Shown here one piece after another: positions 14,817 through 53,622 of a stretch of 64,000 nt of DNA. Position 1 is the stretch's first letter. Each line of letters starts with the position of its first letter. The DNA is taken from positions 1,956-65,955 of the forward strand of contig CAYRKB010000003.1 in NCBI GenBank assembly GCA_964424705.1. The letters are read 5' to 3'. The DNA comes from an uncultured Victivallales bacterium. Lineage in GTDB: Bacteria > Verrucomicrobiota > Kiritimatiellia > UBA8416 > CAYRKB01. Below the pieces are notes generated by a model, which made no database searches, was not told the DNA's origin, and was given only the letters and a program-made list of their open reading frames with translations. Position numbers and translations under genes: made by a program.

Positions 14817-15008
14817 GCGCATGTGAGTTCCGGGGAGTTGTCCGTTCAGGCGCGTTTCTTTATCTCCGCGACGAGGGCGTCGCGACTCCAGAAACAAGCC
14901 GGGAGCGACAACGGGCAACTCCGACTGGAGATGCGGCGACCCCGCCGCGTCCTCTCCGAGCTTCGCCGCATCTCCCCGGGGCGGCGATCCCCGGAACTCA
15001 CATGCGCC
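14817..15008 (+). mobile_element. MITE-like element copy 1 (~192 bp, 20-bp terminal inverted repeats GCGCATGTGAGTTCCGGGGA)
   Basis: Termini gcgcatgtgagttccgggga ... tccccggaactcacatgcgc. One of 4 near-identical copies; lies between the response-regulator gene and rnfA. Confidence 0.8.
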
Positions 15009-15096
15009 CGCCTCGCCTCGGGCGCCCTGAATGTACTTTACGTGGCAGATAGGTTGGGGTAGCGTCCATTTGATATTCTGGCGTGAAGGAGCGGGC

Positions 15097-15678
15097 ATGG
15101 CATCGTACCTTTTGCTGATCATCAGCGCCGTCCTGGTAAACAACTTCGTGCTGACGAGGTTTCTTGGAATCTGTCCGTTTCTGGGAGTGTCACGGGACCT
15201 GCCGACGGCGCTGGGCATGGGGGGCGCTGTGATTTTCGTTATCACCTGCGCGTCCGCCGTCACCTGGGCGGCGCAGGCCTATGTGCTGGTGCCGCTGCAC
15301 GCCGAGTACCTTCAAACGATCGCGTTCATCCTGCTGATCGCCACGTTCGTGCAGTTCGTCGAACTGGTCCTGCGCAAGAGCAGCCCGGGCTTGCAGAAGT
15401 CGCTCGGGATCTACCTTCCGCTCATTACCACGAATTGCGCGGTGCTTGGCGTGAGCGTGCTCAACATCCAGAAGCAGTACGCGTTTCTCAAGAGCGTAAC
15501 GTTCGGATTCGGGGCCGCGCTCGGGTTCAGCCTGGCGCTTGTGATCTTTACGGGGCTGCGCGAAAAGATGGACCGTGCGGACCCCCCCAAGGCATTCAAA
15601 GGCACCGCGCTGGCGCTGGTTACGGCGGGGCTGCTCAGCCTGGCCTTCATGGGATTCTCGGGACTCGTCAAGCAGTGA
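15097..15678 (+). CDS. rnfA: Rnf electron-transport complex subunit A
   Basis: Polytopic membrane protein with the NqrE/RnfA signature ([10 protein letters not shown]...; [15 protein letters not shown]). Start taken at MASYLLL. Confidence 0.85.
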
Positions 15679-15697
15679 GGCGAAAGGCATCGGCTGC

Positions 15698-16510
15698 ATG
15701 GAGATGGCGGTTCAGGCGCTGATCATCGGCGGGCTCGGGCTTCTGGCGGGGGCCATTCTTGCCATTGCCTCGAAGTACCTGTCGGTTTACGAGGATCCCC
15801 GCATCGAGCAGCTCACAGCGCTCCTGCCGGGCCTTAATTGCGGAGCCTGCGGCTTTGCGGGCTGCGCGGGCTATGCCGGGGCGCTCGTTGCGCAGGGCGC
15901 ACAGGTGGACCGGTGCAGCCCCGGGGGGGGCGAGACGGGAAAGAAGCTCGCGGCGTTCCTGGGCGTGGAGGCGCGCATGCCGCAGCGCCAGGTCGCGCTG
16001 GTCCTGTGCGGCGGAAGCAGCGCCCTGGCGGGGCGCGCCTCGCGCTACAATGGCATCGCCGACTGCGCGAGCGCAGAGCTTGTGGCGGGCGGTGGAAAGG
16101 CCTGCCGCTACGGCTGCATGGGGCTCGGAACATGTGCGCGGGTCTGTCCGGCGGCGGCCATTGAGGTGGCTGACGGGCTGGCGGCGGTGCATCCCGACCT
16201 TTGCATTGGATGCAGGAAATGCGTCGATGCCTGCCCGCGGCGTTTGATCAAGCTTGTTCCGGAAGAGCGCTTCATCCACGTGCTTTGCAGCTCCCCGGAG
16301 CGTGGCGCGGACGTGAAGAAGGTCTGCGATGTGGGTTGCATCGGCTGCACGCTCTGCGCGAAAACCGTAAACAGCCTGGGCATCCAGATGAAAGGCGCGC
16401 TGGCGGTCGTGGACTACGGTGTCGCGCTGGACAACGAGGAAACGATCGCCAAGTGCCCCCAGCATACGATCGTCCGCCGTGACGGGCTGCGGAAGGAGGC
16501 GGCGGCGTGA
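15698..16510 (+). CDS. rnfB: Rnf complex subunit B (Fe-S)
   Basis: N-terminal TM helix. LPGLNCGACGFAGCAGYA, followed by multiple 4Fe-4S ferredoxin CxxCxxCxxxCP motifs. Confidence 0.85.
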   Translation: MEMAVQALIIGGLGLLAGAILAIASKYLSVYEDPRIEQLTALLPGLNCGACGFAGCAGYAGALVAQGAQVDRCSPGGGETGKKLAAFLGVEARMPQRQVALVLCGGSSALAGRASRYNGIADCASAELVAGGGKACRYGCMGLGTCARVCPAAAIEVADGLAAVHPDLCIGCRKCVDACPRRLIKLVPEERFIHVLCSSPERGADVKKVCDVGCIGCTLCAKTVNSLGIQMKGALAVVDYGVALDNEETIAKCPQHTIVRRDGLRKEAAA

Positions 16511-17874
16511 AGACTTTGCGCGCGCTGTTCCGGCCCCGCGGCGGGGTGCATCCGCGGTACTGGAAGGACCTGACGTCCGCCTCGCCGATTGAACGCCTGC
16601 CGCCCTCCGCGTCGGCGTTGTCTGTGTCGACCAGCCAGCATCTGGGAGCGCCCGCGAAGCCGCTCGTCAAGAAGGGGGATGCCGTGCTGCGGGGCCAGCC
16701 GATCGCGGAGCCCAGCGGGTTCGTGTCCGCATGGATCCATGCGCCCGCATCGGGAACGGTGAAGAATATTGCCAGCCGGCTCACCGCGAGCGGCGCGTGG
16801 GCGCCGGCCATCGAACTGGAGCCGGACGGCCAGAATCGCGCCTGCGAGCCGCTGCCCGCCATCGCGGACTGGGCGGCCGCCGGGCCTGCCACGCTCGTGG
16901 ACCGCGTGATGAAGGCCGGCATTGTCGGCATGGGCGGCGCGGGGTTCCCAACCCATGTAAAGCTCAGCCCCCCCCCTGGGAAGACGATTCATACGCTCAT
17001 CATCAACGGGGCGGAATGCGAGCCGTACCTGACCGCGGACCATCGTTTGATGGTTGAACAGGCCGCGGCGATCTGGCAGGGAGCTTTGATACTGCGCCGC
17101 ATTCTGGGCGCGGGCGCCCTGCGGTTTGCAGTCGAATCCAACAAGCCCGAAGCGATTGCCGCGCTGCAGAACGTCATGCGGGATCAGGAGGGGGATGTCG
17201 AGCTCGTGATTCTGAAGGCCCTGTATCCCCAGGGGGCGGAGAAGCAGCTGATCTATTCCGTCACGCGCGCGGAGGTGCCGTCGGGGGGATTGCCGATGGA
17301 TGTCGGGTGCCTTGTCGAGAATGTAGGCACGGCGGCGGCGGTGGCAAACGCCGTGCTGCGCGGGATTCCGCTGACCGAACGCGTCATCACGGTTACGGGG
17401 AGCGGGATTGCCCACCCACGGAACCTGCTGGTGCCAGTCGGCACGCCATTCCGCGATCTGATTAGCTTCTGCGGCGGAACGCGCGGGGATATCGGCAAGG
17501 TGATTTGCGGCGGGCCGATGATGGGCATCACCCAGAGTTCGGCGGACACGCCTATCACAAAGATCTCATCGGGGCTGCTCGTGCTGCCACGGTCCGAGGT
17601 CCGCAACTACATATCCATGCCCTGCATCAGCTGCGGCCGCTGCGTGGCGGCCTGTCCGGCGGGCCTTCTGCCTTGCACGCTGAGCGAGGCGATGGAAGCG
17701 GAGAAGCTCGAACTGGCCGAAGAGCTCAATGTAACGGACTGCATCGAATGCGGGTGCTGCGCCTACGAATGCCCCGCCCGCCGGCCGCTGGTGCAGCACA
17801 TGCGCCGGGGCAAGGCGGCGGCCCTGGCGCGGCGCCGGCAAAGCGCCGAGAAGAAGAAAGAGCAGGCCGCATGA
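16507..17874 (+). CDS. rnfC: Rnf complex subunit C
   Basis: GGAGFPTHVKL, then IINGAECEPYLTADHRLM, plus two C-terminal ferredoxin CxxCxxCxxxCP motifs. GTG start overlaps the rnfB stop. Confidence 0.85.
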   Translation: MKTLRALFRPRGGVHPRYWKDLTSASPIERLPPSASALSVSTSQHLGAPAKPLVKKGDAVLRGQPIAEPSGFVSAWIHAPASGTVKNIASRLTASGAWAPAIELEPDGQNRACEPLPAIADWAAAGPATLVDRVMKAGIVGMGGAGFPTHVKLSPPPGKTIHTLIINGAECEPYLTADHRLMVEQAAAIWQGALILRRILGAGALRFAVESNKPEAIAALQNVMRDQEGDVELVILKALYPQGAEKQLIYSVTRAEVPSGGLPMDVGCLVENVGTAAAVANAVLRGIPLTERVITVTGSGIAHPRNLLVPVGTPFRDLISFCGGTRGDIGKVICGGPMMGITQSSADTPITKISSGLLVLPRSEVRNYISMPCISCGRCVAACPAGLLPCTLSEAMEAEKLELAEELNVTDCIECGCCAYECPARRPLVQHMRRGKAAALARRRQSAEKKKEQAA

Positions 17875-18881
17875 GCACGCCCGCGGACCTGTGGATGACC
17901 AGCTCTTCGCCGCACGCGCACTCCGGCGATTCGGTGCAGGGCATCATGCGGGCCGTGCTCCTGGCCATGGCGCCCGCGCTGCTGGTGGCGGTGTGGCTGT
18001 TCGGATGGAACGCGATCCGGCTGACGCTGGTTTGTGTGGCGACGTGCGTTGCCTGCGAGTGGGCATGCAGGAAGTTGATGCGGCGCGAGGGCGGCATCGG
18101 CGACCTGAGCTCCGTTGTAACGGGAGTCCTGCTTGCTTTCAACCTGCCCCCCACGCTGCCCGCGTGGATGGCCGTGCTGGGCTCAGCCGTATCGATCATT
18201 GCGGCCAAGCAGCTGTACGGCGGCATTGGCTACAATCTGTTCAACCCGGCCCTGATCGGGCGGGCCTTTCTGCTGGTTTCTTTCCCGGTCGCCATGACCC
18301 TCTGGGCCGCGCCGCTCCAGGGATTCTTTCCGGGCCCCGACGCCGTGACCTCTGCCACGCCGCTGGGGGCGTGGAAGACGGCCTGGTCCGCCGGCAGCGC
18401 CCCCGCGGGATTTGCGGAGCAGTTCTGCGTACGGGACCTTCTGCTGGGCCTGCGCACAGGCTGCCTCGGCGAGACGTCGGTCGTTGCTCTTGCGCTGGGC
18501 GGCGCGTACCTCCTCTGGCGCCGCTGCATCAGCTGGCATACGCCGGCCGCCTATATCGGCAGCGTGCTGCTTGGCGCTGCCATGCTGTACAAGCTGGATC
18601 CGGCTCACAACCTCAGCCCGCTTTACCACCTCACGACAGGCGGGCTCTTCCTTGGAGCCTTCTTTATGGCCACCGACATGGTGACGACCCCCGTCACCCG
18701 CCCGGGCCTGCTGATCTTCGGCGGCGGATGCGGCGTCCTCACCCTCGTGATCCGGCGCTGGGGCGGATACCCGGAGGGCGTCAGCTTTGCGATTCTGATC
18801 ATGAATGCGCTTACGCCGCTGATCAACCGTGCGACGAGGCCGCGGGCGTTCGGGCACACGAAGCGGACGCCGAAACGATAG
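17871..18881 (+). CDS. rnfD: Rnf complex subunit D
   Basis: Polytopic membrane protein of the NqrB/RnfD family (the FMN-attachment region GLFLGAFFMATDMVTTP is present). Confidence 0.85.
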   Translation: MSTPADLWMTSSSPHAHSGDSVQGIMRAVLLAMAPALLVAVWLFGWNAIRLTLVCVATCVACEWACRKLMRREGGIGDLSSVVTGVLLAFNLPPTLPAWMAVLGSAVSIIAAKQLYGGIGYNLFNPALIGRAFLLVSFPVAMTLWAAPLQGFFPGPDAVTSATPLGAWKTAWSAGSAPAGFAEQFCVRDLLLGLRTGCLGETSVVALALGGAYLLWRRCISWHTPAAYIGSVLLGAAMLYKLDPAHNLSPLYHLTTGGLFLGAFFMATDMVTTPVTRPGLLIFGGGCGVLTLVIRRWGGYPEGVSFAILIMNALTPLINRATRPRAFGHTKRTPKR

Positions 18882-18908
18882 ACAGGGCCCGCGCGCAGCG
18901 GGAAAGAC

Positions 18909-19490
18909 ATGAAAGAGATTGTCAGGCTCGTTGGGGTGCTCACCCTTATCAGCGCCGTCGCAGGGGTGCTGCTCGCGTACACCGCCAAGGTGACCCGCGC
19001 GCCCATCGAGCAGGCCCGCCGGCAGGAGATGCTCGATGCGCTGGCGCAGGTTCTGCCCCCGTTCGATAATCAGCCCGACACGTGCCTCAAGGCGGAATCC
19101 GATGGAGGAGCGGACTGGCTGTTCTATGTCGCCCGCAAGGGGAGCCGGTTCGCGGGAACGGCGTTCGTCACGACCTCGACGAAGGGCTATGCCGGCCCGA
19201 TCACGATCATGGCAGGGCTGAATGCGGATGACACGGTGCGGAAGATACGGATTCTTTCCCACCAGGAAACCCCGGGCCTGGGCGCCAAGATCACACATGA
19301 GCTGTTTGTCGCCCAATTCGACGGCAAATCCATTCCGAATACCCGCTGGGCCGTCCGGAAGGACGGCGGCGAGATCGATGGCATCACGGGTGCGACCCTA
19401 TCCTCGCGGGCCGTGGCGGACGCCATCCGGCGCGGCTGTGACGTATACGCGAGGCACAAGGGCGAAATCTCCGAGACAGGCCGGCAATAG
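18909..19490 (+). CDS. rnfG: Rnf complex subunit G (FMN-binding)
   Basis: N-terminal TM anchor and FMN-binding domain (GYAGPITIMAGL...; TGATLSSRAV). Confidence 0.8.
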   Translation: MKEIVRLVGVLTLISAVAGVLLAYTAKVTRAPIEQARRQEMLDALAQVLPPFDNQPDTCLKAESDGGADWLFYVARKGSRFAGTAFVTTSTKGYAGPITIMAGLNADDTVRKIRILSHQETPGLGAKITHELFVAQFDGKSIPNTRWAVRKDGGEIDGITGATLSSRAVADAIRRGCDVYARHKGEISETGRQ

Positions 19491-19498
19491 GGGCGACT

Positions 19499-20185
19499 AT
19501 GGCTTTTCTGAAAGAATTGAAGAAGGGGCTGTGGGACGAAATTCCGGTCTTTCGCGTCGTGCTCGGCATGTGCCCCACGCTGGCCGTGACCACCTCCGTG
19601 GAAAATGGAATTGGCATGGGCGTTGCCGCGACGTTTGTGCTTCTGTGCTCCAACATCGCGGTGTCGGCCCTGCGCAACGTGATTCCCGGGAAGGTGCGCA
19701 TTCCCTGCTTCATTGTCATCGCCGCAACGTTCACGACCATCACGGATCTGATGATGAACGGGTTCGCGCACGAGGTGCACAAGAGTCTTGGGATCTTCAT
19801 TCCCCTGATCGTGGTCAACTGCATCATCCTTGGACGCGCGGAAGCCTTCGCCTCCAAGAACCGGGTATTGGACTCCGTCGCGGATGCCGTGGGCATGGGC
19901 CTGGGCTTTACGCTGGCCCTGTGTGTGGTGGGGCTGATCCGCGAGGTGCTGGGCAACGGAACCCTCACCCTGTGGCGCGATCTGGGGCTGCAGTGGACGA
20001 TTCCCGGCGCGACAAGCCCCGCGCTGATGATGGTGCTGGCGCCGGGCGGATTCATCACGCTCGGCTGCATCCTGGCGCTGATGAACCGGATTGAAATGGC
20101 GCGCGCGGCGCGGCGCGGCGCCTCCTACTCTCCTCCGGCCGGGATGGACTGCCGCCACTGCATGATCTGCAAGTGGGGCGAGTAG
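19499..20185 (+). CDS. rnfE: Rnf complex subunit E
   Basis: RnfE/NqrD family membrane protein (LGMCPTLAVTTS...; IFIPLIVVNCIILGR). Confidence 0.85.
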   Translation: MAFLKELKKGLWDEIPVFRVVLGMCPTLAVTTSVENGIGMGVAATFVLLCSNIAVSALRNVIPGKVRIPCFIVIAATFTTITDLMMNGFAHEVHKSLGIFIPLIVVNCIILGRAEAFASKNRVLDSVADAVGMGLGFTLALCVVGLIREVLGNGTLTLWRDLGLQWTIPGATSPALMMVLAPGGFITLGCILALMNRIEMARAARRGASYSPPAGMDCRHCMICKWGE

Positions 20186-20199
20186 CGGCGCGGCGGGGG

Positions 20200-20631: not shown

Positions 20632-20722
20632 GGCCCCTCCTTCAGGGTGGATGTGGGGTCGTTTATACCATCCGGCCGTCGACAAATCAAGCCAGTTGGA
20701 CAATAACAGTCGGTCTGGGGTG

Positions 20723-20952
20723 CGATAGCAATAAGTTGCAATCGCACAGAATTCAGAAGCCAGAAGCTAGAATTCAGGAGTCAGGAGGGCAAGTCGAAGC
20801 TTAATGCCACTTTTCATAATGTTGTGTGCGTCCTCTTTGTTGAGGACACGATATTGGACGGCAAGTTCTGATGTAACGTTTTGGGAATCAATGCTGAATT
20901 CTGGCTCCTGTATTCTGACGCCTTGGTGCGATTGCAGCTTATTGCAATCGCG
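20723..20952. repeat. 230-bp segment bounded by inverted, individually hairpin-forming 26-bp repeats (gcgatNgcaataagNtgcaatcgcac)
   Basis: Repeat 1 is at 20723-20748. Repeat 2 (20927-20952) is its reverse complement with 2 mismatches. The enclosed region contains EcoRI-like gaattc-motif repeats and a 69-aa ORF of doubtful reality. Confidence 0.5.
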
Positions 20953-24743: not shown

Positions 24744-24977
24744 TCAGCCCGCGCCTTTGTCTTTGCTGTCCTTTGCGTCGTCGGCATCCTTCGCTTCGCC
24801 GTCGGGCTTGCCGGGACCTTCTTCGCGCCCCTTCTTAAACTCGCTCAGGCTCTTGCCCAGCGAGCGGGCCAGATCGGGAAGGCGCTTTGCGCCGAAGAAC
24901 AGCATCACGACCAACAGGATGGGAATCCACTCTCCCGGGCCGGGAAGACTTAGTGCGATACAAGGCAGTAGGTTCAT
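24744..24977 (-). CDS. tatA: Twin-arginine translocase subunit TatA/E
   Basis: [34 protein letters not shown] gives a TM helix plus the conserved FG-hinge amphipathic helix. Confidence 0.75.
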
Positions 24978-25069
24978 GTTGGCGCTCTCTCTTGTCCTCT
25001 TGTCTTGGACAGCGATACTTCGAAAGCATCCCTATTGCAATCTCAAACTGGCCTGCGCCCGCGCCCGGG

Positions 25070-25262
25070 GCGCATGTGAGTTCCGGGGATCGCCGCCCGG
25101 GGGAGGATGCGGCGAAGCTCGGAGAGAACGCGGCGGGGTCGCCGCATCTCCAGTCGGAGTTGCCCGTTGTCGCTCCCGGCTTGCTTCTGGAGTCGCGACG
25201 CCCTCGTCGCGGAGATAAAGAAACGCGCCTGAACAGACAACTCCCCGGAACTCACATGCGCC
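25070..25262 (-). mobile_element. MITE-like element copy 2 (opposite orientation to copy 1)
   Basis: Same 20-bp TIRs and the same internal sequence, reverse-complemented. Flanked by ccgcgccc on both sides (putative 8-9-bp target-site duplication). Confidence 0.8.
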
Positions 25263-26105
25263 CCCGCGCCCGCCGCTTCACGGCTTGGACGCAGTGCGTG
25301 CTTGATTGGCCGGGAACTCTGCATTCTCGCTCCAGTAGCGGCCCAGTTCCTTCATACCGGGCATGTTGCGAATCCATGAGGACAATGTCAGGCCGGTTGG
25401 TGCGCGTGCGCGTGTTCTCAGTGCCTTTTCAGGGACTTGAGCAGCTCCTCGCCATTGGGTCCACGCTTCCCTTTATGATGGCCGGTTCGTTGGCCGGTGT
25501 CAACGCGAAGAAGACCGACCGGCGGAAATGCCTCAGTGACGCAGGGGGGCTTCGGTAGGGACGCCTCTCCGAGGCCACCGCGGACGGTCCGGAGGTCCGT
25601 CCCTACCTCTGAGCGCCACCCGGTGACTGAGACGATACCCGGCGCGCCGGTCGTAAAAGAAGTGGGCCGCCGCGTCAGCGCGACGGCCCCGGCACCGAAC
25701 ACCCTGCAGAGCGCCCTACCAATCTCCTTTGTGCCCTTACGTAAGCACCACTACTTGCTTGCTGACTGAGGCCGCTCATCAGGGCCATCATTACAGAAAT
25801 CCTAACCCCACCTTTCACCCTCCTTTCGCTAAGAGAGTTTACCGACACCCGTCATGTAGCATAGCGGATGCCAAGATCGATCAGCTGCAGCGACAACTGT
25901 AAGTTGCTGTAGGACAGTATGGTACATTCAGACACCGATCGCCTATCGGACTGCCATGTCTCGCGAAGGTGTCAGGCGAATGTGTCGGTCGTGTCTCGCG
26001 GTGGCACCGGCTCTTCGGCGGCAATCGGCGTGACCCGGCGCAGTCTTTGACAAACCCGTGTTGGACTGATAAGTAGAGGCGCGGATTACCGAGCAAGGAG
26101 ACAAC

Positions 26106-32075: not shown

Positions 32076-33572
<1,497 letters not shown>

Positions 33573-33593: not shown

Positions 33594-36371
33594 ATGTCCG
33601 CCGAAGACGTCCTGAAATCCTTCCATTCAGACCCTGTCTCTTTGGAAAACATTCTCGCGACGGGCGACGCCGGGTACATGGGACGGGCCGCCGCCTTCAT
33701 CCAGGTTCTCAACCGGCACGGCATCGCTCGCAGCCACATCGATGTGGAAGACTTCGCTGTCTTCCGGCACGAAGGCCTCGCGGGCGCGATCGAGCAGTTC
33801 CTGCGCGACAGCCCGCTCGACGCGCTCCCCCTGGAGCGCATCACGGTAAACCAGTATGTCGCGCCGGACACCTGCCGGGATGACCTGGCGCTGATCCGCC
33901 GGCAGCTGGGCGGGCATCAGGCGCGCATGGCGCATTACGCCACGCGCTTCAACATCGACATCCACGTGCGCCTTTTCGTCCGGGGGCTTGATGCGGAGCA
34001 GGCCGCCGCCATCGCGGGCTTCGCGGGCACCGGGGCGGTCGATTCGATCGGCTTCTTTCTCGACTTCGCCCGGTGCGAGCCGGGCTCCGCGCCCGCGCTG
34101 AGGGCCGCCCTCCGGGAGCTGTGCGCCCACGCTGCCGTCCGCAACCCCAAGGTAAGCTTTGGCAATTTCCCCTTCTGCTTCCTGCCGGCGGAGCATTTCA
34201 AGTGCCTGTACCGCGATGCGCTGGGCGCGCTGAAAGGGCAGATCGGCGCGCAGCGCAGCCTGCTTCGCGAGCTGCGGGCGCGGGAGCAGGCCTGCCACGC
34301 CCCATGCCGGGAATGCCGCTGCCGCACGCCCTGCTACGCCTACACGCAAATGGGAGAGTTTCCGGAATGGGCCCCGCAGGCGGTTCCGCGCCGGGAGCGG
34401 ACGCTGGCCTTTGCGGGCGGGAGCCTGGCGCCAGCGGAGCGTCCGGCCGGCGGCGATATCGTCTGGGCCGCTCCGGCGGCGCAGGGCGACCTGCTGGCTG
34501 CGGTGCTTGAGGGATTTGAAAACCTGCTGATCATCGACGGCTATTTCTATTCAAGATTCCCTTGCACGACGTTCGAGGTGATGCTGGCCCTGGAGGAAGG
34601 CGTCAACGTTTTCGGCGCGGCCAGCATCGGCGCGCTCAGGGCGGCCGAGCTGGACCGCTACGGCATGGTGGGCGTCGGCTACGTGTACGAATACCTCGGG
34701 CAGCGGGCCGTCAAGCCGTACCATGTCGTCGCCCAAACCTACGAAGAAGCGGATCGCCCGCTGACCTTGCCCCTGATCCAGGTTATCTACCTGCTGGAGT
34801 GCGCGCGGCGGGAAGGCGTTGTGGACGAGGCCGCGCAGGAGGCGCTGGGCGCGCTGGCGGAAGAGATTCACTTTACGGTTCTTTCCTTCGAGCACTTCTT
34901 CCGGCGGGCCGGGGCGGAGCCGCGCCTGGTGTCGGCGGCGCAGCGGCTGGAGGCCTACTATCGGGACAGGGGCCGTGCGTATTTCGACATCAAGCGCCGC
35001 GACGCGCTGCTGCTGCTGGACCGCTATCAGGCCATCCTGGCAGGGCGTCCGGGCAACTTCGTCCTGCAGGCGATGGACAAGGCGCGCATCGGATACCTGG
35101 GCGCCATAGGCGCCCGGTATCCCGCGGGACGCGACCTCGCGCTGCCGAAGCAATGGATGGCGCCGGCCGCCGGGCGCGGCCCGCTGCCGCCGATCGCGCG
35201 CGACAGCCGGGATGTGCCGGCGGAGCGGACGTGCGACCGGGCTCTGCGGTTCTTTCATGGCCTCGATGTTGTGGTCGCCGATACCACGCGCTACGACCCG
35301 GGCGGCAGCTACATTCTCAGCACCTTCTTTCTGCCTTTCTACTTTCTCGATTACTACCCGTCGTCCGCCACCGGCAACGGGAGTGCGCTTCCGGAGGCTC
35401 TGGCGTCGGCTTACATGGAGCTTGTTGAACGCCTATCGGCCTGCGCGGTGCACGTCGAGGGGCAGAAGGAAGGCGCGCGCGATGCGCCGCAGTTCCCGCT
35501 TGAGCTGATCCCGCAACTGTACAACTGGGGCGCGGATGCGGCGGAGAAGCAGCAGGCGGTGGAAACCTATGGCCGCGTCCTCGTCACGGACATCAGCGCC
35601 GGGCGGGACGTGCGCATACCTGCGCTGGCCATCCCTTTCAGGTATTCCGGCACGGACGGCTACGCGGCCGGCAATTCCCTGCCGGAAGCCATCCTGTATG
35701 GCGTGTATGAGGTCATCGAGCGGGATACGTGCCAGATTCACCACCTCGACCCCGTATGCCGCAAGGCGCTGCCGCAGTTCCAGGTCGACAAGGCTCGCAT
35801 CACGGACCCGCGCTGCCGCGCTCTGATGGCGCAGGCGGAGGAGAAGGGGTGCGACCTCGCGCTGTTCAGCCTTCCCAATCTCAGCGGGCTGCCCTGCGTG
35901 ATGTGCCACGTCTACGATCGCAATCGCCGCATCCAATGCCACGGCGGCATCGCCGTGCGTGCGGATTTCAACGCCGCGCTCCACGCCGCGCTGCACGAGG
36001 CGTACATGCAGTACATCACGTATTTTGTCGGCACGCGGGACGACTACACCTCCCATGCCCCGACGAAGCGCGCGCGCGTTGCGTATGAGAACGCGCAGCA
36101 GCTGTTTCTGGACGGGCCTGCTGCCTGCCCGGCGCTGCCGGCGCCGGTGCGGTTTGAGTCAGTTGGCGCGGAGCTCGCGCATGTTCTGGCGAAGGTGAAG
36201 GGCTCCGGGGCAGAGCACGTTCTGGTCGCCAACCTGAGTCCGCGCGATGAATACGAAGTCAAGTGCGTCAAGGTCATCATTCCCACCTGCGAGTTGTGGT
36301 TCTGTCCGCAGTACAGGCCCTCGTCCTTTCTCCCGGAGCGCGCGCGAAGAACGCGGGCTGCATTCCAGTAG
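33594..36371 (+). CDS. Tripartite fusion protein: unknown N-terminal domain (~290 aa) + TfuA-like domain + YcaO (cyclodehydratase/thioamidation) domain
   Basis: TfuA signature LLIIDGYFYSRFPCTTFEVMLALEEGVNVFGAASIGALRAAELDRYGMVGVGYVYEY. YcaO signatures SSATGNGSALPEALASAYMELVERLSA and SGTDGYAAGNSLPEAILYGVYEVIERD. Confidence 0.75.
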   Translation: MSAEDVLKSFHSDPVSLENILATGDAGYMGRAAAFIQVLNRHGIARSHIDVEDFAVFRHEGLAGAIEQFLRDSPLDALPLERITVNQYVAPDTCRDDLALIRRQLGGHQARMAHYATRFNIDIHVRLFVRGLDAEQAAAIAGFAGTGAVDSIGFFLDFARCEPGSAPALRAALRELCAHAAVRNPKVSFGNFPFCFLPAEHFKCLYRDALGALKGQIGAQRSLLRELRAREQACHAPCRECRCRTPCYAYTQMGEFPEWAPQAVPRRERTLAFAGGSLAPAERPAGGDIVWAAPAAQGDLLAAVLEGFENLLIIDGYFYSRFPCTTFEVMLALEEGVNVFGAASIGALRAAELDRYGMVGVGYVYEYLGQRAVKPYHVVAQTYEEADRPLTLPLIQVIYLLECARREGVVDEAAQEALGALAEEIHFTVLSFEHFFRRAGAEPRLVSAAQRLEAYYRDRGRAYFDIKRRDALLLLDRYQAILAGRPGNFVLQAMDKARIGYLGAIGARYPAGRDLALPKQWMAPAAGRGPLPPIARDSRDVPAERTCDRALRFFHGLDVVVADTTRYDPGGSYILSTFFLPFYFLDYYPSSATGNGSALPEALASAYMELVERLSACAVHVEGQKEGARDAPQFPLELIPQLYNWGADAAEKQQAVETYGRVLVTDISAGRDVRIPALAIPFRYSGTDGYAAGNSLPEAILYGVYEVIERDTCQIHHLDPVCRKALPQFQVDKARITDPRCRALMAQAEEKGCDLALFSLPNLSGLPCVMCHVYDRNRRIQCHGGIAVRADFNAALHAALHEAYMQYITYFVGTRDDYTSHAPTKRARVAYENAQQLFLDGPAACPALPAPVRFESVGAELAHVLAKVKGSGAEHVLVANLSPRDEYEVKCVKVIIPTCELWFCPQYRPSSFLPERARRTRAAFQ

Positions 36372-36819
36372 TACATTGCAGGCGGCGTCAAGCGACCACT
36401 GCCAGAATCAGGACTGAGACCACAATCCGTATGCCCCATGGTTTCGTTGTGGGCGACCCGCTTCCGTTCGCTTCTTCCTCCAGTTGCAGAGTGCGTCAAT
36501 TGCGCATGCCACGAGGACTCGGATTCCAGCTGCTCCGCCTTGTCGTGCCTCAAGGGGAAGAGGTGGTAGACCTCAAGCTTGAGGCGGTATCGGTCGCAGA
36601 GCAGCGCCCCGTCCATACTTCTCCCGAATCGCGGGGCGCTGTGCCGCCTCCGCGATGCGCTTTTGCCGTTTTCGTTAAGGTCTGGTCGCCGACAAGGTTC
36701 GGCGCCGGTCGCCGCATTCTCCGGGCGCCCTTACTCCGCTCCGTTTTGCAGCTGAACGAAAGAGGAAGACACAAACGACCGCAGACGAACAAGGACGCGG
36801 AGGATGTGGTGGCGTTAGG

Positions 36820-37011
36820 GCGCATGTGAGTTCCGGGGATCGCCGCCCGGGGGAGATGCGGCGAAGCTCGGAGAGAACGCGGCGGGGTCGCCGCATCTCC
36901 AGTCGGAGTTGCCCGTTGTCGCTCCCGGCTTGCTTCTGGAGTCGCGACGCCCTCGTCGCGGAGATAAAGAAACGCGCCTGAACGGAGAACTCCCCGGAAC
37001 TCACACGCGCC
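36820..37011 (-). mobile_element. MITE-like element copy 3
   Basis: Same TIRs. Flanked by a perfect 9-bp direct duplication gtggcgtta. Lies immediately upstream of aroD. Confidence 0.85.
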
Positions 37012-37087
37012 CGTGGCGTTATAGGTGGTCGTTTCTTTGTTGCCTGCCGTCCCGATCTGCCGTTACATATCCCGATTCGGGAGAAAT

Positions 37088-37849
37088 ATGAACCGCTTCT
37101 GTATTGGCAACCTAGTGCTGGGAGCGCTGCCGCGAGTCGTCGGCACGCTGTGCCGCCGCGACTCTCTTGCGGCGACGCATGATGCCGCAGGCTACGCCTG
37201 CGACATCGTGGAGGTCAGATTGGATGTGCTGGGCCATGGCTCGCTGGCATGGCTGCAGGAGTGCCAGGCGATCGAGCGCGCCGGATTCCCTGTCATCCTG
37301 ACCTTGCGGCTGGCGGCCGAGGGCGGCAAGTGGGAAGCGACCGACGAGGCAAGGGAAGCCATTCTCTCGGCTGCCGTGAAACATCTTGCGTGCGTGGACA
37401 TCGAGCTGACGAGCGTTCTCCGGGCCCGGCTCTCCAGCGCGGCCGAGCGGCTGAGGAAGCCCGTTATCATCTCCTATCACAACTTTGAGCGGACGCCCGA
37501 CTTCCCGGAGCTGCGGGAGATTCTCGAGCGGATCCTGGCGGTCCCCTCTGCCATCCCGAAGATCTCCACTATGGTGACCGGGGATGCAGACGTGGACACC
37601 TTAAAGAGGCTGTTCGACATTCAGCGCGCGCGGCCGCGCTGCATCATCGGGATGGGTGACAAGGGGACCACGACGCGCGTTCTATTCCCTTCTCTGGGCG
37701 GCTGCCTTGCCTACGGCTATTTCGATTCGCCGGTCGCGCCCGGGCAGATTCCATCCGGGGAGCTGATGCAGCGCCTCGGGGATTTGATCCCGGCGTATAA
37801 AGAGGACCTGATCGCCAGGAAGAAACGCGCGGGGAATGTCTCCGAATAG
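37088..37849 (+). CDS. aroD: 3-dehydroquinate dehydratase, type I
   Basis: Motif VIISYHNFERTP, the TIM-barrel length, and the active-site Lys region KISTMV. Confidence 0.75.
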   Translation: MNRFCIGNLVLGALPRVVGTLCRRDSLAATHDAAGYACDIVEVRLDVLGHGSLAWLQECQAIERAGFPVILTLRLAAEGGKWEATDEAREAILSAAVKHLACVDIELTSVLRARLSSAAERLRKPVIISYHNFERTPDFPELREILERILAVPSAIPKISTMVTGDADVDTLKRLFDIQRARPRCIIGMGDKGTTTRVLFPSLGGCLAYGYFDSPVAPGQIPSGELMQRLGDLIPAYKEDLIARKKRAGNVSE

Positions 37850-45263: not shown

Positions 45264-45311
45264 GTCAACGCCTGCGCGTCACGCGTTCGGGTGGGCTTCA
45301 ATGTGCGCGGT

Positions 45312-45449
45312 CAGAGGCGTTTGGGAGGCTCAAAGGTATACAGTAAGGTATACAATTTTAGCGCGATGTCTGGAGCCTGTCGGACGCAAAGCACCTCCTT
45401 GCAAGTTCAACGCTACGGGAAATGACGCGGACTTTGCATCCGCTGTAGC
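45312..45449 (+). repeat. 138-bp direct repeat, copy A (left border of accessory island)
   Basis: About 95% identical to 49996-50133. Contains two GTATAC palindromes spaced 6 bp apart (aaaggtatacagtaaggtatacaat). Confidence 0.8.
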
Positions 45450-45562
45450 CCTTTCGCCATCCCGTAGACTGCCGCCGAATCTGACCCGGCAATTGGTGTC
45501 ATCTTCCGCCCTGAATCGGCCTTCCTCTGGTCATCGGCAGGGCATCGTGGTAGCCTCTCCCA

Positions 45563-46744: not shown

Positions 46745-46771
46745 TCGGTGTTCCGGGGGGTGTCCTTGAGC

Positions 46772-47407: not shown

Positions 47408-47623
47408 GCCGGATGTCTGTTGTGCGCACGGGAGAGGCGGTCTGGCGGCCACTATCTCTTCCACACGCCGGGAACAGATCTCATGGACGTCAGGATGTCA
47501 GTCGCCGATAACTGTAGTAATATATTTATCATAAGATAGTTGCGCACTATATAACATTATCTTGCACTATAACGAGGCAAGTGTTATCGTGCGCTACGAA
47601 GTTGTGATTCGGGAGCTTCTCGT

Positions 47624-48628
47624 ATGAGAGAAATCGTCCAGTCTCTAGCCCGGCATATTGAGGCGGTGGCCGGCCGCGTGCCCAAACTGCAGCCGGTGCC
47701 TGAGGCAATTCATAAACTGCCGGCCTATTTCGGCGGCCTGTATGAGGCGTGGCAAGCCGACTTGTTTGAGCATCGATACCTGTTCCTTGTCAGCAAGGGA
47801 AAGGAGCACTCTACTCCCGCCGAGGTATCGGGGCACTATCGTGTGGCGATGCGGGAAATCCATGACCGGGTAGCTTTTGTCTTCCTGAATCTTGAGGCTT
47901 TCGCACGCCAGCGCCTTGTTCAATACCGCGTGCCGTTCGTCGTTCCGGGCCGGCAAGTGTATCTGCCACAGACCTTGATCGATCTGCGGGAAGGCGCCTC
48001 GGCGCGAACTGGGCAAAGCTCGGAGGAAATCACTTACCTATCGGGCGCGGCCCAGGCCATCCTCCTTTGTTTACTCCAGAAACCGAAGGCGCCTGAATTG
48101 CTCTCACTTCGAGAGTGGTCAGCAGTGCTCGGCTACTCAGCCATGACTGCCACGCGCGCCGCGAGTGAACTAGCCGCGACTCAACTTTGCAGAATCGAAC
48201 CAAGAGGCAGGAAGACGCTCCTGAATTTCGACGACAAGCGTCGTGAGCTGTGGGAGAAGGCCCTGCCTTTTCTTCGCACTCCGGTGCGGGGTCGGTCGTA
48301 TGTGCGGCTGAAGACAAAGGGAGAGTTGCCGTGGTTGCAGGCGGGTCTTCCTGCATTGTCTCGCCATACCATGCTCGCGGACGACGGGCGCCCCGTCTTC
48401 GCCATAGGCACATCGGAATACACCAAGCTTGTGACCGAAAGGCGGGTTCAGGCAATTCCCTTCTGGGAGGAGGATGCTGTGTCGGTTGAGCGGTGGCGAT
48501 ATCGTCCGGGCGTTCTGTCCGGCGGACCAACCGTTGATCGCCTTTCCCTGTATTTGTCCCTATATACCGAACGAGACGAACGGGTGCAGGCAGCACTCAA
48601 AGAGCTGGTGGAGGGTATTCCATGGTGA
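47624..48628 (+). CDS. abiEi: AbiEi-like type IV toxin-antitoxin antitoxin (HTH transcriptional regulator)
   Basis: About 334 aa. It immediately precedes, and overlaps by 7 nt, a nucleotidyltransferase-toxin gene. Size and organisation are typical of AbiEi. Confidence 0.6.
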   Translation: MREIVQSLARHIEAVAGRVPKLQPVPEAIHKLPAYFGGLYEAWQADLFEHRYLFLVSKGKEHSTPAEVSGHYRVAMREIHDRVAFVFLNLEAFARQRLVQYRVPFVVPGRQVYLPQTLIDLREGASARTGQSSEEITYLSGAAQAILLCLLQKPKAPELLSLREWSAVLGYSAMTATRAASELAATQLCRIEPRGRKTLLNFDDKRRELWEKALPFLRTPVRGRSYVRLKTKGELPWLQAGLPALSRHTMLADDGRPVFAIGTSEYTKLVTERRVQAIPFWEEDAVSVERWRYRPGVLSGGPTVDRLSLYLSLYTERDERVQAALKELVEGIPW

Positions 48629-49401
48629 AAGGGTTACAGCGGTTTGTTGACCATTTCAAAGGGTTCGCGGACTCATATGTCCTTATCGGCGGGGCGGCCT
48701 GCGACATCTGGCTGACCGACCGTGGGCTTACATTCCGTGCCACCAAGGACATTGATCTTGTTCTTGTCGTAGAAGCGTTGCGGCCCGCTTTCTTCACATG
48801 CTTCTGGGAATTCATCAGGGGCGGCCGGTACAAGAGTCACCAACAAAGCGCCGTCCGTCCCGTCTTCTACCGTTTCCAGGATCCGATGACGGCCGAGTAT
48901 CCCTACATGATTGAACTCCTGTCCAGAACGGGGCTGGAGTTGCCTGCGGATGCGCGCATCACACCGATTCCCGCCGGCGATGACATTTCCAGTCTCTCGG
49001 CCATCCTGCTGGATGACACCTACTATCGGTTCGTCGTTCAGAGCCGAACGATGGTGAACGGCGTTCCCATTCTCCCGGCCCAATGCCTCATCCCGCTCAA
49101 GGCGCGTGCATGGCTCGACCTTACCGTGCGCAAGGAGCGCGGTGACGTGACTATCAAGAGCGACGACATAAAGAAGCACCGCTACGACGTGTTTCGGCTC
49201 TACCTTTCGATTGCACCGGCCGACCGGTTTGAGCTGCCTCCAAGCATCCTGGCTGATCTTGGCAGCTTCCTCGACAGGCTCCCCCGTGATTCTGCGGACT
49301 GGTCCTCAATACGGGAGGCCGTCGGTAGGTCGGCCCTGCCCGAAACGGCAACAGTTCTTACCCAGATCCGCGCGATCTTCGGACTTCCTGGGAAGGGGTA
49401 A
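48622..49401 (+). CDS. abiEii: AbiEii/AbiGii-family nucleotidyltransferase toxin
   Basis: N-terminal minimal NTase motif YVLIGGAACDIW...RATKDIDLVLVV (hG[GS]...DhD), with a C-terminal helical domain. 259 aa. Confidence 0.7.
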   Translation: MVKGLQRFVDHFKGFADSYVLIGGAACDIWLTDRGLTFRATKDIDLVLVVEALRPAFFTCFWEFIRGGRYKSHQQSAVRPVFYRFQDPMTAEYPYMIELLSRTGLELPADARITPIPAGDDISSLSAILLDDTYYRFVVQSRTMVNGVPILPAQCLIPLKARAWLDLTVRKERGDVTIKSDDIKKHRYDVFRLYLSIAPADRFELPPSILADLGSFLDRLPRDSADWSSIREAVGRSALPETATVLTQIRAIFGLPGKG

Positions 49402-49995
49402 TGCGCGCCGTAAAGTCGGCCCATCGAGCAAAAGATCAATTTCGGGAGGGTGTCGCTTCCAGGACGATCTGCCGGAACCGTATAAGAATGTCGGAGTGCT
49501 TCTCTTGGAGGTATTCCTCAAACAAGGCCCTCAATGGCAGCGGCCTGTTCTGCAGGCGGATTCCTTGCCGATCGAGCAGGTGTATCAGGCTCCAGTTGAG
49601 GGCATGCTGACCGGGTTCGGGATGACGGACCCCTGGGCTTGGCACGCGCGGTGACAGGGCGTTGCCGGAGGCTCTCCCAAAACCCAAAAGTATACAATTC
49701 TGTCCTGGAAGAGTATACAATGACATAATTCCTTAGGAAAGACGCGCGCGCGACCGGCCATTGCAACAGTGGTGATGTAGAAAGGTCACGCGGCAAGCTA
49801 GACTCTTCGGTTGCAACACACGAGGAGCGACATGGCTTTCAAGCGCGTGACCGAGGAAGAACGTAGACTGGTGTCCTATTGGCGTTCCAAGCCGTTCACC
49901 CCTAGCAGCCAACAGCTTACACAAGCGATTGAAGAGCCTGCGCCTGCTCGTTTGCACCCCGTTTGTCGCAACCTGACAATCGACTGCACCCCTGT

Positions 49996-50133
49996 CAGAG
50001 GCGTTTTGGAGGCTCAAAGGTATACGGTAAGGTACACAATGTTAGCGCGATGTCTGGAGCCTGTCGGACGCAAAGCACCTCCCTGCAAGTTCAACGCTAC
50101 GGGAAATGACGCGGACTTTGCATCCGCCGTAGT
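49996..50133 (+). repeat. 138-bp direct repeat, copy B (right border of accessory island)
   Basis: Matches 45312-45449 in the same orientation, including the GTATAC-containing segment. Confidence 0.8.
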
Positions 50134-50135
50134 CC

Positions 50136-50339
50136 TCACTGCCCTTTCTTCTGATCGCCAGCGGTAGTTTCCCTGTACATCAAAGGCCGCAGCAGAAAAG
50201 GCGCGACAACCATCAGCGCCACCGTGCACACCGCCCGCCCCGTGACTCCATTGCCCAGCCAAAGATATGTTCCTTCACATATCCCGTACACAATTACAGC
50301 CGACATCAAAAGCCAGAGAATCACTTTCACCGCACGCAT
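50136..50339 (-). CDS. Small two-TM membrane protein, hypothetical
   Basis: 67-aa ORF with two hydrophobic helices (VILWLLMSAVIVYGI; VCTVALMVVAPFLL). Abuts repeat copy B. Weak evidence. Confidence 0.25.
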   Translation of the reverse strand: MRAVKVILWLLMSAVIVYGICEGTYLWLGNGVTGRAVCTVALMVVAPFLLRPLMYRETTAGDQKKGQ

Positions 50340-50700
50340 AAAGCTCCCGCCTCCTCACCCATTTATGGGTTACCAGTTACATACTGAATAAGTTTCTTCC
50401 CGATATCAGTATTGTCCTTGAGCCCGCCCAGCTCTGCAGATCCAGGCCCGAACGCGAACAGAGGTTGCAGCGGTGTGTTGACCATTTCAAAGGGTTCGCG
50501 GACTCATATGTCCTTACCCGTGATCCCACGGTCAATGAATTCCTTGATGATCTCAATGCCATTGCCGCTGGCAAACGTGCGTACTTGGTCCTGCTGGATC
50601 TCAACGCTATTCTCCTGTCTGTCTTGTGCGTAATCCGTCACTGATACGTGCCGGACCAAAGGCGTTCCAGAAACACGGCCAGCCGCAGTGGGTGATCGAT

Positions 50701-52389
50701 TTAGGTTCTGTGTTTGCCGCCTGGTGCAACCTGCCTGAATGTCTCACCCAACTGCTTCAAGCCGGCCGAGCAGTCTCGGTCTGGCAGGCAGAGCTCTATC
50801 AAAAAGAGTTTATTGTGCTCTCTGGCGGCCCATTCCAGGGCCCGGCCCAACTCACCCTCAGTTGTCACCTTGATGCCCACGGCATAATCGCCGCCACCTA
50901 GCGCAGCAGGCAGGCCGGCATAGTTCCACATCTGGATATCGTTGTACGGGCCGTCCTCATGCAGCACCCGCTCAACAAGGTAGCCGTCATTGTTGATAAT
51001 CAGGATTATGGCAGGACAGCGCTGTCGTATTAGCGTGGACACTTCCTGGGCGGTCATCTGGAAAGCGCCGTCTCCGGTCAGTACAACAGGGCGCTTTCCG
51101 GGACGGGCCAACGCCACTCCCAGGGCAGCAGGGGTGCAGTATCCAATGGAAGAATAGTACGCCTGGACGATAAAGTTCTCGGGCTCCTCTATATGAAAAT
51201 CAAGGGCCGCGCAAAAGGCATCACCCGGCTCGGCAAGCAGGACCATAGTATCATCGAGGAAAGCGTCCAGTCGTTCGTACAGGCGAAGCGCTGTGAGTGT
51301 CTGCGTCGCAACAGGCGTAAACGTTGCCCTGCGGTTCTGTGACTCAACCGGATGCGAGTTCAGGTACGAACGGGGCTTTACGCTGGTCAACAGCCCGTGG
51401 ATAAAGTCGCCCAACTGCACGCTTGGATAGTAGTGGTCGCCAATATGCACCTGACCATTTGTAGCAACGATCATGCGACTGGCATCAAGATGGTCGCTGA
51501 ACAGCCCTGTATCAAGATCCGTCATCCAGGCTCCAAGCGACAGCAGGCAATCGGAACACTCGACTTGACGTCGGACCGCTTCCCGGCTCCACCCTCCCTG
51601 ATAAATGCCAATGAACTGGGGGTGGAGTTCCGGCAGCACGGATTTGCTGCTGAGCATGGTGGCAAAAGGAAGTTCCGCGGTTTCAACAAGCTGCAGCAAC
51701 CTGCCTCCCAGGCCGAAGCGCTGTAACTCTATGCCGGCCAGTATGACGGGGTTGTCAGCGCGGTCAATGCGAAGCAGCGCCTCTTTCAGGCAACTCTTCA
51801 GACTCTCCTCGTCGGAGTGCAGCGCGACGGAACCGGCAGGCGCAATTGGCTGGCGGCACGGCGCATGCGCCATGTCCGCGGGAAGCTCGAGGTAAACAGG
51901 AAGCTTGTGAAGAATCCCGTTACTGATCACCCTATCAATTTCATCAGGTGCGGCTATGGGATCGATGAGAATCGCCGCATCAACCGTCACTTTCTTGAAT
52001 ATATCCAGCTGCAAATAGTAATCGGTAACCAAGTGATGAACCAGTGCTCCCGCATCTCTGCGCCGGGCAGGTGGAGCGCCGCTGATGACTATCAGCGGGA
52101 CACGTTCGGAAAAGGCTCCCGCCACAGCGTTCAATATACTCAACCCGCCGACACAGTATGTTACCACGGCCGCACCGGCGCCGTTCAATCGTGCGTAGCC
52201 ATCGGCCGCGTAGCCTGCGTTCAACTCATTGCAGGTGCCGACCCACTGGATTGGACTGGCGATTACCTCGTCAAGAAAATCAAGGACATAATCGCCGGGC
52301 ACTCCGAACAGATGTCCAACACCCGCTTCCCGAAGGCGCTGGAGCAGATACCGGGATATGGTGCAGCTCTGTCCGCTGGTCTCCGTCAT
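50701..52389 (-). CDS. Thiamine-diphosphate-dependent 2-keto-acid decarboxylase (indolepyruvate/phenylpyruvate decarboxylase family)
   Basis: N-terminal Pyr domain (HLFGVPGDYVLDFLD), central domain, and C-terminal ThDP-binding GDGAF...NNDGY motif. Confidence 0.8.
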   Translation of the reverse strand: MTETSGQSCTISRYLLQRLREAGVGHLFGVPGDYVLDFLDEVIASPIQWVGTCNELNAGYAADGYARLNGAGAAVVTYCVGGLSILNAVAGAFSERVPLIVISGAPPARRRDAGALVHHLVTDYYLQLDIFKKVTVDAAILIDPIAAPDEIDRVISNGILHKLPVYLELPADMAHAPCRQPIAPAGSVALHSDEESLKSCLKEALLRIDRADNPVILAGIELQRFGLGGRLLQLVETAELPFATMLSSKSVLPELHPQFIGIYQGGWSREAVRRQVECSDCLLSLGAWMTDLDTGLFSDHLDASRMIVATNGQVHIGDHYYPSVQLGDFIHGLLTSVKPRSYLNSHPVESQNRRATFTPVATQTLTALRLYERLDAFLDDTMVLLAEPGDAFCAALDFHIEEPENFIVQAYYSSIGYCTPAALGVALARPGKRPVVLTGDGAFQMTAQEVSTLIRQRCPAIILIINNDGYLVERVLHEDGPYNDIQMWNYAGLPAALGGGDYAVGIKVTTEGELGRALEWAAREHNKLFLIELCLPDRDCSAGLKQLGETFRQVAPGGKHRT

Positions 52390-52463
52390 AAGGATACCTC
52401 CCGAGGCAGGTTCAAAGTATGCATCCTAGGCCTTCTCTCTAATGGCTGCTGTCCGCCGCTGTG

Positions 52464-52880
52464 TCAGACGCGCAGGAATGTCATCTGCAGAATATTTCTA
52501 TTGTTTTCCCGTCGATAGCTTACGCTGTCACACAAGGTGCGGATAAGATGAATTCCCAGTCCACCGACAGCACGATCCGTTGCATCCAGAGTTGTGTCAG
52601 GCTCAGGGAGTGATAGGACATTAAACGGACTTCCGCTGTCGGCGATTGCCAGCAAAAACGCATCGCCACTTGTCGTGCAGGAAATCTCAACGCTGCCCTT
52701 ACCACCAGTATAGGCGTAGTGGCAGATATTGACGAACGCTTCCTCAACTGCAACCAGCAGGCCCGATGTCCTCTTGGGTGCCAACCCACAGCGGCCGGCG
52801 CACTCCCCGACGAATGCGGTCAGTACGTTTAGATTTCCAAGGGTGGCCGCACAGGTCATTCTGTCCGGGCTGAGTTCCAT
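52464..52880 (-). CDS. Anti-sigma factor / serine-protein kinase of partner-switching module (RsbW/SpoIIAB-like GHKL ATPase)
   Basis: N-box EEAFVNICHYA, with DSGSPF and GGLGIHLIR G-boxes. About 139 aa. Start taken at MELSPDR, 2 nt downstream of the STAS gene stop. Confidence 0.7.
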   Translation of the reverse strand: MELSPDRMTCAATLGNLNVLTAFVGECAGRCGLAPKRTSGLLVAVEEAFVNICHYAYTGGKGSVEISCTTSGDAFLLAIADSGSPFNVLSLPEPDTTLDATDRAVGGLGIHLIRTLCDSVSYRRENNRNILQMTFLRV

Positions 52881-52881
52881 G

Positions 52882-53217
52882 TCAGACCAGCGTGGCCAGG
52901 GCCGCTGCCACAGAGTCATCCATCTTGAAGATCGAGCCGAACCCCGAGATGTCAAAAACCTCTTTGACCGTACCTTTGACATTGGCGCAACGTACCTGCC
53001 CGCCTTTCGCCTTGAGTTGCTTTGCGGTCATCAGCAGCACACGCAAACCTGCGCTGCTGATGTAATTCAGACCGTCAAAATCAAAGACTAGAGCGTTCGC
53101 GCCGCTGCTAATCAACTCGTTGAGCGCTTTCCCGCAGTCTGCCGCGGTTACAGCATCGAGTCTGCCAGTTACCGTGACAACGGTCGCGGCTGCTTCCTTC
53201 TCTGTCCGGATTTCCAT
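52882..53217 (-). CDS. STAS-domain anti-sigma-factor antagonist (RsbV/SpoIIAA-like)
   Basis: 111 aa. Contains DFDGLNYISSAGLRVLL with the conserved phosphorylatable Ser. Confidence 0.8.
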   Translation of the reverse strand: MEIRTEKEAAATVVTVTGRLDAVTAADCGKALNELISSGANALVFDFDGLNYISSAGLRVLLMTAKQLKAKGGQVRCANVKGTVKEVFDISGFGSIFKMDDSVAAALATLV

Positions 53218-53430
53218 GGTTAGCTCCCTTTTGCGATTCTTACTTCGTCGTGCTGTCGGTCTGTTTCAGCATTAGAGTCACCCCGTTATTGCCATTCACT
53301 CGCCGGAACTCCATACTTTCCGTCAGCTTCGGGATAGCGTTAAGTCCCAGCTGATCCGATGTTAGTAAGTGACTAATGCGCTTGACTATGCCAGACGCCA
53401 CGGAAGATGTCCAGATCACCATCACAACGG

Positions 53431-53622
53431 GCGCTTGTGAGTTCCGGGGAGTTGTCCGTTCAGGCGCGTTGTTGTACCTCCGCGACGAGGGCGTCGCGAC
53501 TCCAGAAGCAAGCCGGGAGCGACAACGGGCAACTCCGACTGGAGATGCGGCGACCCCGCCGCGTTCTCTCCGGGCTTCGCCGCATCTCCCCCGGGCGGCG
53601 ATCCCCGGAACTCACATGCGCC
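53431..53622 (+). mobile_element. MITE-like element copy 4
   Basis: Same TIRs (one mismatch, gcgcTtgtgag). Flanked by atcacaac/ctcacaac near-identical 8-bp duplications. Lies between the rsbV-like start and the SBP gene. Confidence 0.8.

Follow-up and report, generated by a model that had tools for sequence, protein, structure and literature searches.

A probable family of miniature inverted-repeat transposable elements, new and orphan, in an uncultured PVC-group bacterium from fresh water

Within a 64-kb stretch of contig CAYRKB010000003.1 from an uncultured Victivallales bacterium (hereafter the window, meaning the whole stretch that was analysed), we find exactly four copies of a short, GC-rich repeat that very probably belong to a family of miniature inverted-repeat transposable elements, or MITEs, moved by a transposase, a reading to which we assign a probability of roughly 85%. 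The host is an uncultured freshwater bacterium of the Planctomycetes-Verrucomicrobia-Chlamydiae (PVC) group, Kiritimatiellia or Verrucomicrobiota-like, from Lake Mendota. The element has the structural hallmarks of a MITE: it is small, ends in inverted repeats, lies between target-site duplications (TSDs) of fixed length, is present in multiple dispersed copies and has no coding capacity. The family described here is new and orphan; the kind of element is well known.

Results

Four near-identical copies with sharply defined ends

Alignment of the four stretches gives pairwise identities of 94-98%, and the likeness between them ends abruptly, with GGGCGC at one edge and GCGCCC at the other (Table 1). 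These edges delimit 22-bp terminal inverted repeats, GGGCGCATGTGAGTTCCGGGGA / TCCCCGGAACTCACATGCGCCC, which enclose a core of 151 bp made up of GC-rich palindromes, nested and in tandem, and holding no gene. The two inverted repeats of a copy differ from each other by one mismatch at most, and the sole variable site, base 7 of the left repeat, may be A, G or T. A preliminary description of this DNA had proposed an element of about 192 bp with 20-bp inverted repeats; the element itself stands, but each edge lies 2 bp farther out than had been thought, so that its length becomes 195-196 bp and that of its repeats 22 bp.

The 20-mer originally taken as the inverted repeat occurs eight times in the window when up to three mismatches are allowed, twice in each copy, where shuffled sequences predict 0.02 occurrences. 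An nhmmer profile built from seven copies, together with repeat finding, returned the same four window copies only, and neither approach revealed degenerate relics of the element in the window; nor do the hairpin motifs of the element occur in the window outside the four copies. Alignment, 20-mer count and profile thus all bear out the presence of four near-identical copies, at a density of about one per 16 kb.

Table 1. Coordinates of the element copies in the window, their flanking duplications, and distances from complete copies to the start codons downstream of them
Feature	Position	Strand	Length or distance	Inverted repeats	Flanking duplication
Copy 1	14815-15009	+	195 bp	14815-14836 and 14988-15009	none
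Copy 2	25068-25263	-	196 bp (1-bp insertion)	25068-25089 and 25242-25263	9/9
Copy 3	36818-37012	-	195 bp	36818-36839 and 36991-37012	9/9
Copy 4	53429-53623	+	195 bp	53429-53450 and 53602-53623	9/10
Duplication at copy 2	25059-25067 and 25264-25272				CCGCGCCCG (+ strand, first half)
Duplication at copy 3	36809-36817 and 37013-37021				GTGGCGTTA (+ strand, first half)
Duplication at copy 4	53419-53428 and 53624-53633				CCATCACAAC and CCCTCACAAC
Copy to start of rnfA			87 bp		
Copy to start of tatA			90 bp		
Copy to start of aroD			75 bp		
Copy to start of EF-hand gene			84 bp		
Copy to start of 318-amino-acid gene			125 bp		
Copy to start of lpxI			109 bp		

Nine-base-pair duplications of variable sequence

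Transposases that cut their target in a staggered fashion characteristically leave a duplication whose length is fixed and whose sequence varies, and most copies are flanked by just such a mark. With the boundaries corrected, the duplications around copies 2 and 3 are CGGGCGCGG and TAACGCCAC, respectively, and each is perfect over 9 bp, while that of copy 4 can alternatively be scored as an 8/9 match with one additional C at the junction. Duplications of 8-9 bp had been reported before, perfect at copy 3, 8/9 at copy 4 and present at copy 2; all three survive our analysis, copy 2 reaching 9/9 at the corrected edges, and copy 1 has none. The preliminary description had also set a test in advance, namely whether the duplications are reproduced at other genomic copies. 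They recur, in two more perfect 9-bp cases on other contigs of the same organism: CCGCCCTAT at L011:9656-9850, and CACAGGCAA around a variant of about 300 bp at L008:4093-4392.

Including these two, we have seven complete copies, the four in the window and those at L008:447-641, L008:4093-4392 and L011:9656-9850. The duplication is 9/9 at four of them and 9/10 at one, and at the other two no convincing duplication is seen. Summed over all seven, 41 of 63 flanking bases match in register, a figure that drops to 20-25 when the boundaries are moved by 1-3 bp. The chance of one 9/9 flank match is about 6e-6 (estimated at 61% GC), and the duplicated sequences share no common motif.

Copy 1, alone among the window copies in lacking a TSD, has peculiar flanks. 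A 10-bp tandem repeat, ATTCGTACCC, runs for 2.8 units at 14786-14812 and stops 2 bp before the left end of the copy, its period being near the length of the TSDs, and the right flank holds GGGCGCCC, which resembles the tips of both inverted repeats fused. Tandem repeat and fused tips could be footprints of past insertion or excision, or a coincidence.

A model of transposition and the evidence against it

In the model that we propose, the enzyme, presumably a DDE transposase whose gene lies elsewhere in the genome, would bind both 22-bp inverted repeats and insert the element into DNA cut with a 9-bp stagger; once the staggered ends were repaired, the target would carry a 9-bp direct duplication. 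Between genes, where most copies lie 75-125 bp upstream of a start codon, insertions would be tolerated. The transposase, its family and the continuing mobility of the element are what we infer here. Several DDE families (IS5/IS903, IS256, ISKra4, IS1595/IS1016, IS4 and IS1) fit a 9-bp duplication combined with a GGG/GGC terminus, and assignment to any one insertion sequence (IS) family is unjustified because neither a transposase nor a full-length IS was found.

A number of results weigh against this model. Two complete copies depart from the expected flanks: at copy 1 there is no TSD, with 2 of 9 bases matching, and at L008:447-641 no clear duplication is present. The search for a parent IS was likewise negative throughout. 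No transposase was detected in the window by Pfam analysis of 40 open reading frames (ORFs) that span nearly all of its long genes, as the preliminary description had stated, and none is found in the gene lists of about 50 kb of other contigs from the same organism. An exact scan for the inverted repeat (GCGCNTGTGAGTTCCGGGGA) produced no match in a genome collection, two in a metagenome collection, both of them unrelated single chance matches, and one in a viral collection, a chance match to the same unrelated sequence as in the metagenome scan. BLAST searches of plasmids with the element returned chance matches only (37-42 bp, E>=0.6). Nor is there an empty site, or any presence/absence polymorphism, among the same-organism contigs with identical PanC, TatA, STAS and RnfC proteins, all of which either carry the element (copies 1, 2 and 4) or terminate inside it.

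More distant relatives offer no orthologous empty site for comparison, because the nearest of them is 75% identical in RnfC and gene order is different. The best RnfC match in species-representative genomes, which are assemblies of PVC-group bacteria, Kiritimatiellia and Verrucomicrobiota, reaches 65% identity, and the 75% match, from a set of 5.8 billion proteins, sits on a contig of 1.7 kb. One relative, L107 (RnfC 68%), has a different gene order and lacks the element, which is also absent from the loci of 80 other relatives.

Intergenic copies upstream of genes

All four window copies are intergenic, as the preliminary description had stated. Copy 1 lies between a response-regulator gene (minus strand, start 14677) and rnfA (start 15097), the two starts being those of the 139- and 193-amino-acid gene calls. 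Copy 3 follows the end of a TfuA-YcaO gene (36371) by 446 bp and precedes the likely start of aroD (ATG at 37088). Copy 4 is flanked by divergent genes, one for an anti-anti-sigma factor with a STAS domain (start 53217, minus strand) and one for a solute-binding protein (start at 53932 or beyond), at distances of 211 and about 308 bp. The earlier placements of copies 1 and 3 upstream of rnfA and aroD, and of copy 4 between an rsbV-like gene and a solute-binding-protein gene, were therefore right; that of copy 2 downstream of tatA was wrong, because tatA (24744-24977; Pfam TatA_B_E) is on the minus strand and the copy lies upstream of it.

Taking the complete copies together, six of the seven end 75-125 bp 5' of a start codon (Table 1), a pattern that was seen post hoc and that, given intergenic lengths, is weakly significant. 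Relative to the downstream gene, copies have the same orientation at rnfA and tatA and the opposite one at aroD.

Translations of the element in public databases

Because the element is GC-rich, four of its six reading frames are free of stop codons, and the ORFs that run across the copies are, as had been supposed, translations of the element: no frame has a Pfam match at E<=1. That they might be real small protein genes was considered and rejected, given that they belong to no family and that four of six frames are stop-free.

The same property gave access to copies outside the window, which were sought by searching a protein collection with the consensus ORFs joined as one query. This search recovered six spurious ORFs, P0001-P0006, whose sources are two NCBI assemblies (GCA_041445565.1 and GCA_041442895.1), JGI and the ENA accession ERZ1426830. 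Deposited as 'hypothetical proteins' of 196-222 amino acids, they read through the element and its flanks and are annotation artefacts; P0004 and P0006, like the frames of the element itself, have no Pfam match at E<=1. The contigs that encode the six yielded at least five further copies from the same organism. These occupy other gene contexts; two NCBI genome assemblies likewise contain copies, as does a metagenome contig in ENA.

A stable predicted fold and a two-module variant

On either strand the element is predicted to fold very stably (-124 and -121 kcal/mol; z = -8.7 and -7.0), as would be expected from its inverted repeats and internal palindromes. No Rfam family was matched by the element, whether the cut-off was the gathering score or E<=1, and no sigma-70-like promoter or intrinsic terminator was found within copies 1 and 3, the two copies scanned. 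Among the substitutions that separate seven short copies, which are too similar to be informative on this point, there are no compensatory pairs, and several predicted pairs are broken; the copies therefore look young, and their substitutions are consistent with neutral decay.

A longer form of the element exists as well. At L008:4093-4392, a diverged second three-hairpin core is placed after position 142, giving two modules in about 300 bp; a degenerate, left-truncated two-module copy is located at L011:~8915-9183, and the peptides P0004 and P0006 imply further ones. In the second module (module B) the hairpins are kept while their sequence is altered, from GCGGCG/CGCCGC to GCGGTG/CACCGC and from CGGGAG/CTCCG to CGGAA/TTCCG. 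This retention is compatible with structural constraint and also with correction of the palindrome by template switching, a process that can yield apparent compensation in DNA palindromes without selection.

Fold, position and module B together raise the alternative that the element, though spread by transposition, is a cassette that was domesticated or has a function, be it a structured small RNA, a 5'-untranslated-region (5'-UTR) element or a protein-binding palindrome array, and that is kept for regulating adjacent genes. Its great stability on both strands, the location of six of seven copies 75-125 bp upstream of a start codon and the hairpins that module B retains despite sequence change speak for such a cassette. 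Yet the copies match nothing in Rfam even at the permissive threshold, lack promoter and terminator signals where scanned and are inconsistent in orientation; their substitutions break pairs and compensate none, template switching can mimic the compensation seen in module B, and the upstream pattern is post hoc and weakly significant. We consider a functional cassette improbable.

Similarly improbable, in our estimation, is the related proposal of a dispersed regulatory site, in which the three-hairpin core, with pairing maintained as its sequence diverges, would have been seeded some 75-125 bp upstream of rnfA, tatA, aroD, lpxI and other genes. It draws on the post hoc distance pattern and on changes, one or two in number, that look compensatory. 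If it were true, the regulatory cassette, acting as a protein operator or as a 5'-UTR RNA, would join unrelated genes into a common regulon.

Distinction from REP-type repeats

A different kind of explanation is that we are dealing with a palindrome like those of repetitive extragenic palindromic (REP) sequences or bacterial interspersed mosaic elements (BIMEs), or with a repeat spread by recombination or by a Y1 (RAYT) transposase rather than by cut and paste. In its location between genes, its GC-richness, its palindromes and its high copy number, the element resembles such repeats, and the failure to find a transposase would sit comfortably with this view. REP, BIME and REPIN sequences, however, are imperfect palindromes of 20-40 nt that have no target duplication and are accompanied by a RAYT gene, whereas the unit described here measures 195 bp, has 22-bp terminal inverted repeats and is bounded by exact 9-bp duplications of variable sequence, two features that REP and REPIN lack. 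Pfam scans of nearly all long genes of the window, moreover, found none for a RAYT or Y1 transposase. On grounds of size, inverted repeats and duplications we reject a REP-type repeat as very unlikely, and the same three features support transposase-mediated insertion, for which the preliminary description had argued.

Reproducible junctions across assemblies, and strain differences

Contigs of the same organism, recognized by identical proteins, come from Lake Mendota metagenome assemblies (Ga04851xx), Logan assemblies and NCBI assemblies. JGI contigs carry copies 1, 2 and 4 and are 99.8-99.95% identical to the window. In the Logan assemblies (at least eight runs), all contigs at the sites of copies 1 and 2 run into the inverted repeat and stop 21-28 bp inside it, and contig L005 likewise stops at copy 4; such contig ends within an inverted repeat are the behaviour of a multi-copy repeat. 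That the copies are instead artefacts of metagenome assembly or binning, through chimeric joins or a collapsed repeat, might be suspected from the metagenome-type data of the window and from the way in which short-read assemblies break at the element, but this can be rejected as scarcely credible, since JGI and Logan assemblies, made independently and from different samples, contain the same junctions and flanks (99.8-100% identical) and the copies bear private substitutions and site-specific duplications.

Differences between strains were observed in the same comparison. Over window positions 42888-63217, JGI contig L003 (as also L004, L006 and L007) is 99.946% identical to the window, with five substitutions and one gap in 20,336 bp. 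Of these substitutions, three (T>G, A>G and A>G) fall within 20 bp of one another inside copy 4 (L003 9595-9789), and the variant bases are carried by no other known copy. With three of five strain substitutions in a single 195-bp copy, the element appears as a local hotspot where change is concentrated, for which gene conversion from an unsampled copy or palindrome-associated mutation may be responsible. Elsewhere, L106, a strain variant from the same Lake Mendota sample, lacks 26 bp (window 11883-11908), a deletion that turns a histidine-kinase gene of 558 amino acids into ORFs of 109 and 437 amino acids.

Other repeats and a TfuA-YcaO fusion in the window

The window contains further repeats. 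A second, unrelated family consists of two direct copies of 143 bp (45310-45452 and 49994-50136; 95% identical), both in stretches without a confidently called gene. A 54-bp direct repeat, GGTTACAGCGGTTTGTTGACCATTTCAAAGGGTTCGCGGACTCATATGTCCTTA, is found at 48632-48685 and 50463-50516 (96% identical), its first copy at the start of an ORF of 259 amino acids (48622-49401). A third family, about 125 bp long and ending in the palindrome GCGATTGCAnnTTATTGCAATCGC, has one member in the window (20827-20951) and one on L008 (314-439), 90% identical; on L008 a copy of the MITE is inserted 7 bp from it. A fourth repeat, possibly another MITE, is shared between window positions ~4781-4915 and L011 9184-9263, with an 80-bp core that is 95% identical and includes a long palindrome, GCCCGCGTAAAGCGGGCTCTAC...GTAGAGCCCGCTTTACGCGGGC. 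Inverted sequences, ATTCGCATTAT / ATAATGCGAAT, flank the window member, and on L011 the repeat abuts the degenerate two-module copy.

The gene that precedes copy 3 (33594-36371, plus strand) encodes a protein of 925 amino acids in which a TfuA-like domain (residues 315-428) is fused to a YcaO domain (594-899), some 300 N-terminal residues being unassigned, so that TfuA and YcaO occur as a single polypeptide in a PVC bacterium. Just 5' of it lies a gene (32076-33572) whose product, a MoxR-type AAA_3 ATPase, carries an FHA domain at its N terminus.

Discussion

Short, intergenic and strongly folding repeats include the BOX, Correia, ERIC and RUP families, which share these traits with the present element. 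The pneumococcal BOX varies in the number of its internal modules, much like the one- and two-module forms described here. As to target sites, Correia elements duplicate TA, and no fixed 9-bp duplication is known for BOX or ERIC. We know of no sequence relation between the present element and any of these four families.

Nearly the same architecture is seen in QMITE2 of Coxiella burnetii, a host from a different phylum: it is 150-190 bp long, with inverted repeats of 23-29 bp and direct repeats of 7-11 nt that vary in sequence, is mainly intergenic, has a predicted fold of about -113 kcal/mol and comes in large and small versions (PMC5896051; PMC10969869, Fig. 2). QMITE2 also has a GTAG REP that is targeted by IS1111, and it yields a small RNA (PMC5896051; PMC10969869); neither is seen in the sequence data on the present element. 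MITEAba12 of Acinetobacter is another point of reference, being like our element non-autonomous, bounded by inverted repeats and 9-bp TSDs, free of coding sequence and able to adjoin host genes (PMC6382973). At 113 bp and 78% AT, with 16-bp inverted repeats, it has an identified parent, ISAba12, and its transposition has been seen experimentally (PMC6382973), whereas the element from the PVC bacterium is 195 bp long and GC-rich, has 22-bp repeats and is known from sequence alone. In a literature search, which was not lineage-specific, no account of such an element from this lineage came up.

The consequences for work on this organism are practical ones. The element breaks short-read assemblies of its host at every copy and is already the source of spurious 'hypothetical protein' entries in public databases (P0001-P0006), and its copies offer markers for telling strains apart in the Lake Mendota time series. 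Beyond these effects it is an ordinary kind of mobile element, by which an orphan, apparently high-density MITE family is added to a deep, uncultured PVC lineage.

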